Source: Escherichia coli | GTDB lineage: Bacteria > Pseudomonadota > Gammaproteobacteria > Enterobacterales > Enterobacteriaceae | Reading direction: 5' to 3' (one strand) | Assembly (NCBI RefSeq): GCF_041886205.1 | Contig: NZ_CP169029.1 | Length of the DNA stretch: 64,000 bases | Shown here: one piece after another, positions 19,115-31,336 of the stretch | Position numbering within the stretch: the stretch's first letter is position 1 | How the letters are laid out: every line of letters starts with the position of its first letter | Translations under genes and position numbers: made by a program | The notes under the pieces: generated by a model | Database searches by the model: none | What the model saw: only the letters and a program-made list of their open reading frames with translations | What the model was told of the DNA's origin: nothing

Positions 19115-20167
19115 ATGAAAAAGACAGCTATCGCGATTGCAGTGGCACTGGCTGGTTTCGCTACCGTAGCGCAGGCCGCTCCGAAAGATAACACCTGGTA
19201 CACTGGTGCTAAACTGGGCTGGTCCCAGTACCATGACACTGGTTTTATTCCTAACAATGGTCCGACCCACGAAAACCAACTGGGTGCAGGTGCTTTTGGT
19301 GGTTACCAGGTTAACCCGTATGTTGGTTTTGAAATGGGTTACGACTGGTTAGGTCGTATGCCGTACAAAGGCGACAACATCAACGGTGCATACAAAGCTC
19401 AGGGCGTTCAACTGACCGCTAAACTGGGTTACCCAATCACTGACGATCTGGACGTATACACTCGTCTGGGTGGTATGGTATGGCGTGCAGACACCAAGGC
19501 TAACGTACCTGGTGGCGCATCCTTTAAAGACCACGACACTGGCGTTTCTCCGGTTTTCGCAGGTGGTGTTGAGTACGCGATCACTCCTGAAATCGCTACC
19601 CGTCTGGAATACCAGTGGACCAACAACATCGGTGACGCAAACACCATCGGTACTCGTCCGGACAACGGTCTGCTGAGCCTGGGTGTTTCCTACCGTTTCG
19701 GTCAGGGCGAAGCAGCTCCGGTAGTTGCTCCGGCTCCAGCTCCGGCACCGGAAGTACAGACCAAGCACTTCACTCTGAAGTCTGACGTTCTGTTCAACTT
19801 CAACAAAGCAACCCTGAAACCGGAAGGTCAGGCTGCTCTGGATCAGCTGTACAGCCAGCTGAGCAACCTGGATCCGAAAGACGGTTCCGTAGTTGTTCTG
19901 GGTTACACTGACCGCATCGGTTCTGACGCTTACAACCAGGGTCTGTCCGAGCGCCGTGCTCAGTCTGTTGTTGATTACCTGATCTCCAAAGGTATCCCGG
20001 CAGACAAGATCTCCGCACGTGGTATGGGCGAATCCAACCCGGTTACTGGCAACACCTGTGACAACGTGAAACAGCGTGCTGCACTGATAGACTGCCTGGC
20101 TCCGGATCGTCGCGTAGAGATCGAAGTTAAAGGCATCAAAGACGTTGTAACTCAGCCGCAGGCTTAA
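19115..20167 (+). CDS. ompA: Outer membrane protein A precursor (350 aa here; non-K-12 loop allele)
   Basis: Starts at [30 protein letters not shown]-terminal OmpA domain present. Loop segments read [10 protein letters not shown] and [15 protein letters not shown], unlike the K-12 form I recall. Confidence 0.95.
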
Positions 20168-20182
20168 GTTCTCGTCTGGTAG

Positions 20183-20211
20183 AAAAACCCCGCAGCTGCG
20201 GGGTTTTTTTT
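20183..20211. terminator. Bidirectional intrinsic terminator between convergent ompA and matP
   Basis: A-tract, stem CCCCGCAG / CTGCGGGG, then T8. Confidence 0.85.
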
Positions 20212-20242
20212 CGCCTTTAGTAAATTGAACTGACTTCGTCAG

Positions 20243-20695
20243 TTATTCCTTACCCAGCAATGCCTGCAGATCATGCTTCAAAGAAGACATTTTATTCGCG
20301 TATTTCTCTTTGTTTTCCGCATCTTCAATCAGCTGAACAATCGTTTCAGAAAGCGTTTTACCGCGACGCTGCGCAAGACCAGCCAGACGTTGCCAGACAA
20401 TAAATTCCAGATCGATCGATTTTTTGCGCGTATGCTGGTGTTCCGCATTAAAATGGCGCTTCCGTCTGGCCCGAATGGTTTGCTTCATGCGATTGACCAG
20501 TTCCGGATTCATATGCTTGTCAATCCAGCCATTTACCAGCACGGGTTCATTTTCCAGCGAGAGCAACACATCGACGGCTTCCTGGGCGGCACTGGCTTCT
20601 ATGTAACGGGTGATTAACTCCCCTTCGCGATGCTTCTTCACCAGATACTTCCATTTCCAACCGCTTTCAAGATTTTCAAGTTGTTGATATTTCAT
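20243..20695 (-). CDS. matP: Ter macrodomain organiser MatP (150 aa)
   Basis: Track [38 protein letters not shown]... matches MatP. Confidence 0.93.
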
Positions 20696-20880
20696 AGCGA
20701 TCTCAATGTTACCGTGTAACTCTTTACAGAATATCAGCTTTTTAGGCCAGTGAAGAAAAGAATCTCCATCCTGTGAGCTTTAACGCCCATGCCAGGAGTA
20801 TTGTCGGTGCTTTCTACGTGTGCTGTAGTGCCGGTTACGGTATAATCGCGGCTTTGACAACAGACTAAAAAACATCAACT

Positions 20881-22641
20881 TTGACCATTACGAAACTTGC
20901 ATGGCGTGACCTGGTTCCTGATACCGATAGCTATCAGGAAATATTTGCTCAGCCACATTTGATTGACGAAAACGATCCTTTATTCAGTGATACTCAACCG
21001 CGGCTGCAATTCGCACTGGAGCAGTTGCTGCATACGCGAGCATCCTCCTCTTTTATGCTGGCGAAGGCCCCGGAAGAGTCTGAGTATCTGAATCTTATTG
21101 CCGATGCCGCGCGTACGCTACAAAGCGATGCAGGCCAACTCGTGGGCGGTCACTATGAGGTTTCCGGCCACTCCATCCGCTTACGTCACGCAGTGAGTGC
21201 AGATGATAATTTTGCGACTTTAACGCAAGTTGTCGCTGCCGACTGGGTAGAAGCGGAGCAACTCTTTGGCTGCCTGCGCCAGTTTAATGGCGACATTACC
21301 CTGCAGCCTGGTCTGGTGCATCAGGCAAATGGCGGTATTCTCATCATCTCTTTGCGTACACTGCTGGCGCAACCTCTGCTGTGGATGCGGCTGAAAAATA
21401 TCGTTAACCGCGAGCGTTTTGACTGGGTTGCGTTTGATGAGTCGCGCCCTCTCCCCGTCTCTGTGCCTTCGATGCCATTGAAGCTGAAAGTCATTCTGGT
21501 AGGCGAACGCGAATCATTGGCTGATTTCCAGGAGATGGAGCCAGAGCTTTCAGAGCAGGCTATTTATAGCGAATTTGAAGATACTCTGCAGATTGTCGAT
21601 GCGGAGTCAGTAAGCCAGTGGTGTCGCTGGGTGACATTTACCGCCAGACATAATCACTTACCTGCACCGGGAGCGGATGCCTGGCCGGTACTTATCCGCG
21701 AAGCAGTACGCTACACCGGTGAACAAGAAACACTTCCGCTTAGCCCGCAGTGGATCCTCCGCCAGTGTAAAGAGGTCGCCTCCCTGTGTGATGGCGACAC
21801 CTTCTCCGGCGAGCAGCTAAACTTAATGCTGCAGCAGCGTGAATGGCGCGAAGGTTTCCTCGCTGAACGTATGCAGGATGAGATCCTTCAGGAGCAAATC
21901 CTGATTGAAACCGAAGGCGAACGCATCGGGCAAATTAACGCCCTTTCGGTCATTGAATTTCCGGGTCATCCACGCGCTTTTGGCGAACCTTCTCGCATTA
22001 GCTGCGTTGTGCATATTGGCGATGGTGAATTCACCGACATCGAACGCAAAGCGGAGCTTGGCGGCAATATCCATGCGAAAGGGATGATGATCATGCAGGC
22101 GTTCCTGATGTCGGAACTACAGCTTGAGCAACAGATCCCCTTCTCAGCATCGCTGACATTTGAGCAGTCATACAGTGAAGTGGATGGCGATAGTGCCTCG
22201 ATGGCTGAACTCTGCGCCCTGATAAGCGCCCTCGCCGATGTGCCGGTGAATCAGAGTATCGCTATCACAGGTTCAGTCGATCAGTTCGGTCGTGCCCAGC
22301 CGGTCGGTGGTTTAAATGAGAAAATCGAAGGCTTCTTTGCTATTTGCCAGCAACGTGAGTTAACCGGGAAACAAGGTGTCATTATCCCCACTGCTAACGT
22401 TCGCCATTTAAGTCTTCACAGTGAACTGGTGAAAGCGGTAGAAGAAGGCAAATTCACCATCTGGGCAGTAGACGATGTGACTGACGCACTGCCGTTATTA
22501 TTAAATCTGGTGTGGGATGGCGAAGGCCAAACGACGCTGATGCAAACCATCCAGGAACGTATCGCGCAAGCATCGCAACAGGAAGGACGTCACCGTTTTC
22601 CATGGCCATTACGTTGGCTGAACTGGTTTATTCCGAACTGA
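20881..22641 (+). CDS. ycbZ: Lon-like protease YcbZ (586 aa, lacks AAA+ module), TTG start
   Basis: Track [27 protein letters not shown]...; the first codon is TTG; a TATAAT-like hexamer lies about 35 nt upstream. Confidence 0.88.
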
Positions 22642-22671
22642 TCGGACTTGTTCAGCGTACACGTGTTAGCT
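22636..22671 (+). promoter_or_regulatory. fabA promoter operators: FadR site AACTGATCGGACTTGTT (22636..22652) and FabR palindrome AGCGTACACGTGTTAGCT (22654..22671)
   Basis: Sequences match the fabA -40 FadR activator site and adjacent FabR repressor site as I recall them; located about 40-75 nt upstream of the fabA ATG. Confidence 0.75.
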
Positions 22672-22709
22672 ATCCTGCGTGCTTCAATAAAATAAGGCTT
22701 ACAGAGAAC

Positions 22710-23228
22710 ATGGTAGATAAACGCGAATCCTATACAAAAGAAGACCTTCTTGCCTCTGGTCGCGGTGAACTGTTTGGCGCTAAAGGCCCGCAATTGCCAG
22801 CACCGAATATGCTGATGATGGACCGTGTGGTCAAAATGACCGAAACGGGTGGTAACTTCGACAAAGGGTATGTTGAAGCAGAACTGGATATCAATCCGGA
22901 TCTGTGGTTCTTCGGATGCCACTTCATTGGCGATCCGGTTATGCCGGGATGCCTGGGCCTGGACGCAATGTGGCAGCTGGTAGGGTTCTACCTCGGCTGG
23001 CTGGGCGGCGAAGGTAAAGGCCGCGCGCTGGGCGTTGGCGAAGTGAAATTCACTGGTCAGGTACTGCCGACAGCGAAAAAAGTGACCTACCGTATTCACT
23101 TTAAACGCATTGTTAATCGTCGTCTGATTATGGGTCTGGCAGATGGCGAAGTGCTGGTTGATGGTCGTCTGATCTATACCGCCAGCGACCTGAAAGTCGG
23201 TCTGTTCCAGGATACGTCTGCCTTCTGA
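22710..23228 (+). CDS. fabA: 3-hydroxydecanoyl-ACP dehydratase/isomerase FabA (172 aa)
   Basis: Track ORF 22512..23228; the known product starts at [30 protein letters not shown] (ATG at 22710). Confidence 0.95.
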
Positions 23229-23249
23229 TTATAATCAGACAGAGTATCA

Positions 23250-23286
23250 AAAGGCGAAACCTCCGCAATGCGGAGGTTTCTTTTTA
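23250..23286. terminator. Bidirectional intrinsic terminator between convergent fabA and rmf
   Basis: Stem AAACCTCCG-CAATG-CGGAGGTTT with T-tract downstream and A-tract upstream. Confidence 0.85.
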
Positions 23287-23297
23287 AAGAGACAGAA

Positions 23298-23465
23298 TCA
23301 GGCCATTACTACCCTGTCCGCCATGGCTTCTCGCCAGCCTCCCAGCCATTGTGACCTTTGATTCAGCGTCTGATAGGGACACATTTCTTTTGAGCGTCCG
23401 GCGATGCCGGCCTGATAACCACGTTGATGTGCCCGTTCCAGGCGATCTCGTTTTTGTCTCTTCAT
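23298..23465 (-). CDS. rmf: Ribosome modulation factor Rmf (55 aa)
   Basis: Reverse translation from ATG at 23465 gives MKRQKRDRLERAHQRGYQAGIAG...; below the 60-aa track cutoff. The track ORF 23284..23481 is in a different frame. Confidence 0.9.
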   Translation of the reverse strand: MKRQKRDRLERAHQRGYQAGIAGRSKEMCPYQTLNQRSQWLGGWREAMADRVVMA

Positions 23466-23720
23466 GCCTCGTTTCCCTCATACTGGTTTCTGGTGGAAAA
23501 GAAAACAGTGATTACTAAATGTGCAATCACAGTTAAGCAATACCCCGAATCATAACTGCCGTCAATGCGCAAAATTCACGCCACTGTCATATTTGTGAGC
23601 TACACGGGCATGTCAGTTGTACAAAAAATGTGAAGAGGAACAACTTTTTCCGCACGTTAGAAACAAAAAAACCGCCTCAGGCAACATACCGGAGACGGTT
23701 ATATTTACAAATCTTTATAA

Positions 23721-24284
23721 TTAAGGTAGACGCTTTATCTCTTGTGCAATGGAAGCGGCTTCCTGACTCCAGACACTGGCCAGCACTTTGACCATCTCAT
23801 CGTAACCATCCTGCGTTTGCACCCCTTCCAGACGGAACGGACGTTTGATCAGTTGTCCCTGGTGGTTCAACAGCCACTCCCCACTGACAATGACCTTGCC
23901 ATCATAGCGACCGTTAAACTCCGTTACGGTAACATTGAGCGTGTCCTGGGCGCTTCCCAGAGGCTGGGAGGCAACCACCCAGCCGGGCAGTTGCGTGCTC
24001 AGGTTGGCAACCAGGGTGTTGCGCAACTGTTGATCCAATGGGCTGGCCCACAAGTTGTTGTTGGCAATCACATACTTCACATCACTGGTTTGATAAACCA
24101 CACCATTCCCCGCCAGATAGTCAGGAACAGTGACCTGCTCTACCCATAACAGGCGATTACCCTGGCTGGCGGTACTTTGTGTACCGCTCTGCACCACAGG
24201 TAACTGGTAATAGTTTTTATTAATTTCGCCGGAGCTGCATCCGGCCAGCCACAGTGCTGCAATCGTCACTAGCCACTTTTTCAT
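23721..24284 (-). CDS. pqiC: Paraquat-inducible lipoprotein PqiC (YmbA), 187 aa
   Basis: Track ORF MKKWLVTIAALWLAGCSSGEINKNYYQ... with a lipobox LAGC. Confidence 0.9.
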   Translation of the reverse strand: MKKWLVTIAALWLAGCSSGEINKNYYQLPVVQSGTQSTASQGNRLLWVEQVTVPDYLAGNGVVYQTSDVKYVIANNNLWASPLDQQLRNTLVANLSTQLPGWVVASQPLGSAQDTLNVTVTEFNGRYDGKVIVSGEWLLNHQGQLIKRPFRLEGVQTQDGYDEMVKVLASVWSQEAASIAQEIKRLP

Positions 24285-29227: not shown

Positions 29228-31336
29228 TCAGGCTGCGGTAATCAGCCAGCAGTTGTGGATCTGGCGGTTACGGGCGAAATCCTGGGAGAGCGTTTTTTGC
29301 GTAATTTCTTGTGCTTTCAGTCCCAGTTTTGCCAGCCCGTCGAGATCCATACGGAAGCCACGTTTATTGTTCGAGAACATGATCGTCCCACCTGCACGCA
29401 GCAGACGTTTCAAATCTTTCATCAGCGCCAGATGATCGCGCTGAACATCAAACGCATCTTCCATTCGTTTTGAGTTAGAGAAGGTTGGCGGATCGATAAA
29501 GATCAGATCGAACTGTTCATTTGCCTCACGCAGCCACGCCAGGCAGTCGGCCTGAATCAGGCGATGCGCACGCCCGGTCAGGCCATTCAGACGCAGGTTG
29601 CGTTCTGCCCACTCCAGATAAGTACGCGACATATCCACGGTGGTGGTGCTGCGTGCACCGCCTAATCCCGCATGCACGGTGGCGCTGCCGGTATAAGAAA
29701 ACAGGTTGAGGAAATCTTTGCCTTTGCTCATCTGACCGAGCATACGGCGGGCGATACGGTGATCGAGGAACAGACCAGTATCGAGATAATCCGTCAGGTT
29801 CACCCACAAGTGAGCGTTATATTCGGTAACTTCAAGAAACTCGCCCTTCTCGCCCAGTTTCTGGTACTGGTTTTTGCCCTTCTGGCGTTCGCGGGTTTTC
29901 AGTACCAGTTTGTTTGGCGCAATCCCCAGTACCGAAATGGTTGCAGCGATAATATCGAACAGACGCTGACGCGCTTTGTGAGCATCAATAGTTTTTGGCG
30001 GTGCATACTCCTGCACCACCACCCAGTCGGCATAACGGTCAACGGCAACGTTATATTCCGGCAGATCGGCGTCATACAGGCGGTAACATTCAATCCCTTC
30101 CTGGCGAGCCCACTTCTCGAATTTTTTGAGGTTCTTACGCAGGCGGTTGGCGTAGTCTTCCGCTACCATCGCCGGTTTGCTGTCTGGAGTGCTTTCGGCA
30201 ACGTGGTAATTTTTCTGTACGCAGTCCAGCGGGCCGTTTTTCGCCTTGTACTGTTTGTCTGCACGCAGCTGCAAGCAGCTTAGCAGATCCGGCGAGGCAC
30301 TAAACAAAGAGAGATTCCAGCCACCAAACTGGTTTTTCATGATCCGACCCAGCAGGCTATGCAGCGCAATCAGCGCCGGTTCGCTGTCCAGACGTTCCCC
30401 GTATGGCGGGTTGCTCAACACTGTGCCGTACGGCCCTTTCGGCAGCGGATTGGTCAGTTGCGCGACATCTTTCACCTCAAAGGTGATCAGTTCACCAATC
30501 CCCGCAAGACGGGCGTTAGTGCGTGCACGTTGAATCACCCGTGCGTCGCTGTCCGAACCGTAAAAATGAGAGCTATACTCAGCCAGGCCTTTACGGGCGC
30601 GAGTTTGCGCTTCCGCTTTCACTTCCTGCCAGATAGCTTCATCATGCTGCGCCCAGCCGCTAAAGCCCCAACGCCCACGGTGCAAGCCTGGTGCGCGATC
30701 GGTCGCCAGCATCGCCGCTTCAATCAGCAACGTACCGGAACCACACATCGGATCGAGCAGCGGTGTTCCTGGCTGCCAGCCGGATCGCATCACAATAGCG
30801 GCTGCCAGGGTTTCTTTAATCGGCGCAATACCAGCACGATCGCGATAGCCACGCAGATGTAAACCATCACCACTGAGATCAAGGGCGATATTGGCGGTTT
30901 CTTTATGCAGCCAGACGTTAACGCGGATATCCGGCGCATCGCGATCAACATTTGGGCGCGGCAGATTTTTCCGCGTGAAAGCATCGACGATCGCGTCTTT
31001 CACTTTCATCGCGCCGTACTGACTGTTGCGGATGGTGTCATTCAAACCACTGAAGTGGACAGCGAAGGTCGCGCCAGGATTAAACATCTCTGTCCAGTTG
31101 ATCGCCTGAACACCGAGATAGAGGTCTAAATCGCTGTAAACCTTACACTCGCCCAGCGGCAACATAATACGCGAGGCCAGGCGGCTCCACATCAGGCTCT
31201 GGTAAACAAGCCGTGTGTCGCCCTTGAAATGGACCCCACCCTGAACCACCTGGCATTCAACGGCCCCCAGGTTTTCCAGTTCAGTTTTTAACAGCTCTTC
31301 CAGCCCACGGGCCGTACTGGCAAACAGAGAATTCAT
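29228..31336 (-). CDS. rlmL: Bifunctional 23S rRNA methyltransferase RlmKL (RlmL/YcbY), 702 aa
   Basis: Track [28 protein letters not shown]... matches RlmL; stop lies 11 nt upstream of the uup start, consistent with an rlmL-uup operon. Confidence 0.93.

Follow-up and report, generated by a model that had tools for sequence, protein, structure and literature searches.

ycbZ of Escherichia coli, a LonC-type protease gene with a TTG start and a 3′ end inside the FadR operator of fabA

In ycbZ, the last sense codon and the stop (AAC TGA) are also the first six nucleotides of the FadR activator site in the promoter of fabA, the next gene downstream, and it is the operator that fixes these six bases. 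A LonC-type protease gene that is initiated at a low level from TTG, overlaps the operator, forms an operon with fabA and has its C-terminus fixed by the operator is very probably the right account of the interval as a whole. The gene itself, ycbZ of E. coli, is already known or annotated, as are its start, the LonC family, the fabA region for FadR and FabR, the operon and a ribosome pause in the gene. What is added here is a LonC assignment with structural support, along with a caution on the product name “AAA family ATPase”, and the recognition that the stop codon and the pause-site codon for Asn are operator bases. The comparison of about 80 species also adds a demonstration of nucleotide-level selection on TTG, AAC and TGA, together with an estimate, from gene order in distant genomes, of the evolutionary depth of the linkage between ycbZ and fabA.

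The window is the whole stretch of E. coli DNA that was analysed, 64,000 nucleotides in length. The local gene order is ompA(+), matP(−), ycbZ(+), fabA(+), rmf(−), pqiC(−). An ORF finder gives ycbZ as 20881..22641 on the plus strand, with 586 aa, a TTG start and a TGA stop, and the RefSeq limits are exactly the same in genomes that are 100% identical across the locus. A reading of the letters made beforehand (the sequence-only reading) had run the feature from 20881 to 22652; its start stands, whereas 22652 is the end of the operator and the gene ends at 22641. The region 20700-22800 shows 100% identity to several RefSeq genomes and is carried by 5425 of 5426 complete genomes. The features around the two ends of the gene are as follows.

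20841..20846, plus strand: TATAAT, −10-like hexamer of a putative ycbZ promoter, read from the sequence, 34 nt before TTG
20847..20880, plus strand: ycbZ leader, A-rich and without a Shine-Dalgarno sequence
20881..22641, plus strand: ycbZ coding sequence, LonC-type Lon-like protease, TTG start and TGA stop
22636..22652, plus strand: AACTGATCGGACTTGTT, activator site for FadR in the fabA promoter; AAC of Asn586 and TGA make up its first 6 nt
22648..22653, plus strand: TTGTTC, putative fabA −35
22654..22671, plus strand: FabR repressor palindrome AGCGTACACGTGTTAGCT, inside the gel-shift probe of PMC4537474 and between the putative fabA −35 and −10
22671..22676, plus strand: TATCCT, putative fabA −10
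22710..23228, plus strand: fabA coding sequence (RefSeq), 68 nt past the ycbZ stop, with no intervening terminator

The ycbZ 3′ end and the fabA promoter

With the putative −10, transcription of fabA would start near 22683, and the FadR site would then span −47 to −31, which is reportedly the numbering of this site by Henry and Cronan. The FadR consensus is ANCTGGTCNGACNTGTT, from which AACTGATCGGACTTGTT departs by 1 mismatch; a search of the window with this consensus, allowing up to 2 mismatches, returned 2 matches against 0.3 expected by chance. Moreover, 22627-22681 is identical to the fabA_ec probe, which was shifted by FadR in a gel-shift assay, and predicted FabR palindromes are marked in the table of probes of the same study (PMC4537474). 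The stop codon at 22639-41 is thus within the FadR site at 22636-52, as the sequence-only reading had placed it. The FabR palindrome is near-invariant across Enterobacteriaceae loci.

To follow conservation, we used 80 Enterobacteriaceae species loci with 70-96% protein identity to YcbZ; together with the window and a pair of nearly identical RefSeq copies from E. coli, they give a set of 83 sequences. The ORF ends AAC TGA TCGGACTTGTT in 82 of the 83 enterobacterial sequences. Residues 581-585 are freely variable, and conservation leaps to nearly 100% exactly at 22636, where AAC begins. The Asn586 codon is AAC in 81/81 and never AAT, and it is one of only three two-fold codons of ycbZ with a frozen third base. 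Because AAC is frozen and conservation jumps at this very codon, the six bases are fixed by the operator and not by the protein. By fixing AAC-TGA the operator also fixes the C-terminal Asn and the stop of YcbZ, and this constraint is the main consequence of the overlap. Similarly, TGA lies inside a FadR-like site in three distant loci (L083, L085 and L092, which show 56%, 52% and 41% protein identity; GGCTGATCGGACTTGTT, CACTGATCCGACTTGTT), and in one further distant locus a TAA stop directly abuts CTGATCCGATCAG. In the literature on FadR activation of fabA, we found no remark that the last codon and the stop of ycbZ are the first 6 nt of the site.

Published RNA-seq places the two genes in one operon, inside which fabA has a promoter of its own (PMC4161252). 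No terminator-like site is present on the plus strand between ycbZ and fabA, the first one lying at 23256-80, and RNA polymerase starting at ycbZ therefore continues into fabA. Both observations agree with the earlier claim that read-through from ycbZ is physically coupled to fabA. Among 12 distant loci, fabA is directly 3′ of ycbZ in 11, the exception being a 586-kb endosymbiont genome; the linkage is kept down to 36% identity, and the order matP(−)/ycbZ(+)/fabA(+) persists to about 40% identity. The physical and transcriptional coupling of ycbZ and fabA is ancient and well supported. The two genes are thus an operon with an internal promoter under the control of FadR and FabR, in which transcription from upstream of ycbZ would supply some FadR-independent fabA mRNA.

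The TTG start and its leader

TTG is the first possible start of the frame because an in-frame TAA is located at 20866-68, four codons 5′ of it. The sequence-only reading had seen a TATAAT-like hexamer before the TTG and no obvious Shine-Dalgarno sequence. The hexamer is TATAAT itself, at 20841-46, and no Shine-Dalgarno-like tetramer occurs within 25 nt 5′ of TTG, the best duplex with the anti-Shine-Dalgarno sequence being +0.4 kcal/mol. A good −35 is missing for ycbZ (GTGTGC sits at 20818-23), and transcription would start at about 20853. The −35 and −10 hexamers of both ycbZ and fabA were read by eye; a promoter scan of the sequence called neither promoter, because neither has a consensus −35, and we retrieved no direct mapping of the ycbZ transcription start from the literature. 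Between the predicted start of transcription and nucleotide 20 of the coding sequence, the RNA is predicted to be fully unpaired. The mean column conservation of 20841-20880, which covers the −10 hexamer and the leader, is 0.81, compared with 0.61 in the remainder of the intergenic region, and TATAAT or TATACT located 34-37 nt 5′ of TTG and followed by an A-rich leader is conserved in Enterobacteriaceae loci.

Both the TTG start and the TGA stop are invariant in 83/83 sequences. Synonymous-site saturation was measured on the 57 species that align gap-free, in which none of the 91 four-fold sites in invariant residues is invariant and only 3 of 79 two-fold codons are. Since TTG is invariant while synonymous sites are saturated, selection acts on the nucleotides of the start codon. 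The 586-aa ORF with a TTG start, as first read, is borne out by the RefSeq limits, by a codon periodicity that sets in at codon 2, by invariance of the start in 81 Enterobacteriaceae loci and by the more distant loci, 6 of 11 of which carry TTG at the homologous start at 36-56% identity (L083, L085, L086, L088, L089 and L090). The start is replaced by ATG in L087, L091, L092 and L094, and by GTG in L093. Automatic gene calls in L083, L085 and L089 that extend the gene 5′ through the promoter hexamer are probably wrong. Codon 5 of ycbZ, AAA, is invariant as well. A terminator-like hairpin at 20915-40 (codons 12-20) was considered and rejected: in many species its pairs are disrupted by third-position changes that no compensatory change restores, and the hairpin probably arises incidentally from the conserved PDTxSYQE codons.

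These features would combine into a simple route to low expression, in which a promoter with a good −10 and without a −35 yields a short, A-rich, unpaired leader lacking a Shine-Dalgarno sequence, and translation is initiated from TTG. The weak codon on this open leader may thus set a low level of the protease, which we infer to be the selective reason for its retention.

YcbZ as a LonC-type protease

The protein features discussed in this section are listed below.

21052..21090 (aa 58-70), plus strand: position equivalent to Walker A, from the homologue alignment and the secondary structure of the model; no GK[ST]
21298..21555 (aa 140-225), plus strand: Pfam AAA_32 match, containing the degenerate Walker B
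21331..21354 (aa 151-158), plus strand: degenerate Walker B GGILIISL, aligned with GGYLILDA of MtaLonC
21913..22515 (about aa 345-545), plus strand: Lon (S16) protease domain, from Pfam Lon_C and a gap-free alignment to MtaLonC
22192..22194, plus strand: catalytic Ser438 in DGDSAS; D435-G-D-S438 is invariant in 37 homologues
22321..22323, plus strand: catalytic Lys481, invariant in 37 homologues

The sequence-only reading had described a Lon-like C-terminal region without Walker A and B motifs and had proposed an HMM search for Lon_C and AAA domains. YcbZ matches Pfam Lon_C at aa 435-539 (E 2.5e-10) and AAA_32, a LonB-like AAA domain, at aa 140-225 (E 6.4e-14), and regular-expression searches of the protein with [AG]x4GK[ST], GK[ST] and hhhhD[DE] gave zero matches. 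The closest solved relative is the ATP-independent protease LonC of Meiothermus taiwanensis (MtaLonC), with E 8e-57 in a single-sequence phmmer search and E 5e-91 when a profile of 37 homologues is used. An AlphaFold model of YcbZ built on the homologue alignment (pLDDT 88.5, pTM 0.84) shows TM scores of 0.81-0.82 to MtaLonC in both directions by Foldseek, over about 610 columns (E about 1e-42), compared with 0.70 to archaeal LonB, about 0.35 to LonA and 0.27 to BrxL (8EMH).

MtaLonC K625, named as catalytic (Liao 2012), aligns with K481 of YcbZ, and the Ser of its GDSA motif (S582 according to the titles of mutant PDB entries) aligns with S438. LonC is defined by two insertions in the protease domain (Liao 2012), and through both of them YcbZ aligns to MtaLonC gap-free. 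A LonC-type insertion in YcbZ reads C489QQRELTG, where the family consensus is CxxRGLTG and E. coli has E in place of G. In the AAA module, the Walker A-equivalent of the model is a strand-loop-helix (E58-62, H67-80), the topology of which points to aa 58-70 as the probable equivalent of the P-loop. GGILIISL of YcbZ has S-L at the position of the acidic pair of Walker B, and its counterpart in MtaLonC, GGYLILDA, has been termed Walker B-like (Liao 2012). MtaLonC is without ATPase activity, yet it still binds nucleotide (Liao 2012). Because its AAA+-like module is without Walker A and B residues, YcbZ is predicted by homology to work without ATP, as MtaLonC does.

Membership in canonical LonA or LonB was rejected because scores are far under the cut-offs, Walker A and B are missing and fold similarity is weaker. 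The NCBIfam LonB model TIGR00764 covers aa 142-556 with 85 bits against a cut-off of 516.6, and the endopeptidase La models, which have cut-offs of 608 to 891, reach about 30 bits. BrxL was also rejected (TIGR02653, E 0.22, 9.8 bits against a cut-off of 628; TM as above). We conclude that YcbZ is a LonC-type protease in which an AAA+-like fold is retained and the Walker A and B residues are lost. The earlier description of the protein as lacking an ATPase is therefore right in that the Walker motifs are gone and no intact AAA+ module is present, and needs correction in that the AAA+-like fold is still there, with degenerate motifs. RefSeq gives ycbZ the product name “Lon protease family protein” in some genomes and “AAA family ATPase” in others, and the latter probably misleads, given that the protein has no Walker motifs. 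Many RefSeq copies of ycbZ are still named “AAA family ATPase”; in UniProt, YcbZ is a putative Lon protease homolog.

The ribosome pause, other readings and related systems

One more feature lies at the 3′ end.

22615..22638, plus strand: ribosome-pause motif, W579 L580 ... P585 N586 (PMC8848927)

A very strong pause takes place when the P site holds Pro585 (CCG) and the A site holds the AAC codon of Asn586, and is supported by profiling, reporter assays, tRNA-seq and cryo-EM (Fujita et al., PMC8848927). It is stronger than the secM Pro166 pause and requires W579/L580, P585 and N586, and the ycbZ 3′ UTR is not the cause of stalling; neither fabA nor FadR is mentioned in that paper. The A-site codon of the pause is positions 1-3 of the operator. 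Within the motif, W579 and N586 are conserved in 81/81 and L580 in 79/81, and P585 in only 37/81. In the predicted fold of 22560-22740, the ribosome-binding region of fabA is unpaired in both the MFE and the centroid structures, with a z of −1.38 against shuffles. A search of 20000-24000 against Rfam found no family at the gathering score and no match of any strength at the ycbZ-fabA junction. Sub-threshold Rfam matches in 20000-24000 occur only at the ompA/matP and fabA/rmf terminators.

Several other leads on ycbZ have been published. A tgt mutant, which lacks the tRNA-Asn modification queuosine, has a 2-fold higher level of YcbZ protein (PMC9508795); erythromycin repeatedly selects loss-of-function mutations in ycbZ; more stop-codon read-through in ycbZ mutants is cited in PMC8848927 and PMC9508795; and in a two-hybrid screen, a YcbZ fragment of aa 565-586 gave a score with RNase E. 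None of these four leads shows a mechanism.

The pause raises the question of whether the overlap is itself a regulatory device, in which pausing or ycbZ read-through would tune fabA in the style of SecM-secA, perhaps in response to queuosine. Its strength relative to secM Pro166, its location on the transcript shared with fabA, 71 nt 5′ of the ATG of that gene, the coincidence of AAC in the A site with the start of the operator, the doubling of YcbZ in the tgt mutant and the conservation of the linkage to 36% identity would all fit such an analogy. However, the bulk of fabA mRNA should arise from the internal promoter, 3′ of the pause; the Pro585 essential for pausing is present in fewer than half of the species; and stalling has been separated from the ycbZ 3′ UTR in a study in which fabA goes unmentioned. 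A SecM-like unmasking of the fabA ribosome-binding site was rejected because this site is predicted to be unpaired and the folding of the junction does not stand out from shuffles, and there is no evidence for SecM-like control of fabA in junction folding, Rfam or residue conservation. We therefore regard a regulatory device as quite unlikely; in our view the pause is either a side effect of the C-terminus imposed by the operator or something added to it in particular lineages. A further elaboration, which builds on dual coding of AAC-TGA, is doubtful at present: selection on the operator would fix the Asn586 codon and the stop, these would, where a lineage has Pro585 as well, produce a very strong pause that sets YcbZ output, possibly through queuosine in tRNA-Asn, and the conserved pairing could mean either that the protease is tied to unsaturated fatty acid or envelope homeostasis or that “ycbZ” mutant phenotypes, erythromycin and EDTA resistance among them, are partly cis effects on fabA.

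Two further readings are less credible still. It would be very improbable that the real start lies downstream, at the TTG of codon 27 or the ATG of codon 59, with an artefactual annotated N-terminus. The annotated TTG does lack a preceding Shine-Dalgarno sequence, and in the literature on start sites, N-terminomics and ycbZ we retrieved no direct experimental mapping of it; however, codons 2-26 show a coding pattern of conservation (0.86, 0.91 and 0.65 at positions 1, 2 and 3, respectively), and they hold a conserved segment of 11 residues in which L6, W8, L11 and P13 are the majority consensus of the homologue alignment. Moreover, residues 1-30 are modelled with pLDDT 78-93, and neither TTG27 nor ATG59 is conserved in Enterobacteriaceae loci. 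As for the notion, conveyed by the RefSeq product name, that YcbZ is a working AAA+ ATPase protease, the AAA_32 match and the AAA-like fold of the model speak for it. Against these stand the loss of the Walker A and B residues with S-L in place of the acidic pair, a LonB score of 85 bits against the 516-bit cut-off and the lack of ATPase activity in MtaLonC, the nearest characterised relative, and a working ATPase is scarcely credible. The account preferred here thus remains a LonC-type protease with a TTG start and an operator-fixed C-terminus.

The overlap has consequences for work on either gene. Any deletion, insertion or recoding at the ycbZ 3′ end touches the FadR site of fabA, an essential fatty-acid gene; transcription from any cassette inserted in ycbZ can run on into fabA; and the pause is not alterable at Asn586 without altering the fabA operator. 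Phenotypes attributed to ycbZ, including macrolide and EDTA resistance and translational fidelity, need controls for effects in cis. The TTG start and the matP-ycbZ-fabA arrangement, both kept to about 36-41% identity, provide testable hints on the function of the protease.

Compared with known systems, the ycbZ pause resembles those of SecM-secA and TnaC-tnaA in being a strong nascent-chain pause near the end of an ORF, with a gene 3′ of it on the same transcript. It differs from them in that no predicted RNA structure joins the pause to the fabA ribosome-binding site, its critical Pro is poorly conserved and fabA has its own promoter 3′ of the pause. The start is like other conserved non-ATG starts on open leaders without a Shine-Dalgarno sequence, with its TTG, an initiation region that is A-rich and predicted to be unpaired, and an AAA fifth codon that does not vary. 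Unlike the AUU of infC, which is part of an autoregulatory loop, the TTG of ycbZ has no such loop known or shown, and unlike other conserved weak starts it gives way to ATG or GTG in some distant lineages.

With LonC proteins (MtaLonC, PDB 4FWD and 7EV4, and Thermus TTC1975) YcbZ shares the Ser-Lys Lon domain, the two LonC-specific insertions and an AAA-like module without catalytic motifs, and its whole-chain TM to MtaLonC is 0.82. It departs from MtaLonC in having about 139 residues ahead of the conserved core instead of about 295 (586 aa versus 732 aa in total), in having lost two residues still present in MtaLonC, the Asp of Walker B and the Lys of Walker A, and in adding a W-rich, ribosome-pausing C-terminal tail. 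With respect to the activation of fabA and fabB by FadR, in which a FadR site in the −40 region is followed by a FabR site, the window contains that E. coli fabA region itself.

The ycbZ start and the spacer upstream

The automatic gene starts of three distant ycbZ homologues (L083, L085 and L089) lie upstream of the position homologous to the TTG start and cross the TATAAT-like hexamer, which adds N-terminal extensions of 7-21 residues. These extensions are probably misannotations that stem from the weak start. Among the two-fold degenerate codons of ycbZ, only Lys5 (AAA), Gln217 (CAG) and Asn586 (AAC, the last sense codon) have an invariant third base across 57 species, and the fixed Lys5 codon is consistent with the initiation region being under constraint. 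In the spacer between matP and ycbZ, the 50 nt adjoining the start codon of matP (on the minus strand) are near-invariant across 80 species and far more conserved there than the remainder of the spacer; it presumably represents the leader or promoter of matP.

Features of the start region and the ycbZ coding sequence (window coordinates unless a locus is named)
20696-20745, conserved block next to matP
20893-20895, Lys5 AAA, third base invariant
20915-20940, perfect 9-bp inverted repeat, TTCCTGATA ccgatagc TATCAGGAA, ycbZ codons 12-20
21529-21531, Gln217 CAG, third base invariant
L083 2501-2560, upstream-extended gene call
L085 1813-1836, upstream-extended gene call
L089 1501-1566, upstream-extended gene call

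Coding-region repeat and product names

The inverted repeat in the 5' coding region was scored as terminator-like. In the cross-species comparison its pairs are broken by third-position substitutions that are not compensated, and a conserved RNA structure is thus unsupported.

Identical or near-identical ycbZ proteins bear two RefSeq product names, 'AAA family ATPase' versus 'Lon protease family protein', in the records compared (NZ_CP037903.1 and NZ_CP074354.1; loci L001 and L002). Motif analysis of the protein does not support the former name.

The fabA side

Atlantibacter subterranea (L051) is the sole enterobacterial locus in which the end of ycbZ (AAC TGA) is not followed by the FadR/FabR/fabA sequence; here ycbZ is parted from fabA by a rearrangement or insertion. 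A second match to the FadR consensus is no more than chance would give. The hairpin between the convergent fabA and rmf looks like a bidirectional terminator, and published RNA-seq data indicate that rmf transcripts sometimes pass it, giving antisense RNA over fabA-ycbZ.

Features on the fabA side and beyond
23256-23280, strong 11-bp GC-rich hairpin, T-runs on both strands
31083-31099, minus strand, second FadR-consensus match, AACTGGACAGAGATGTT, 2 mismatches
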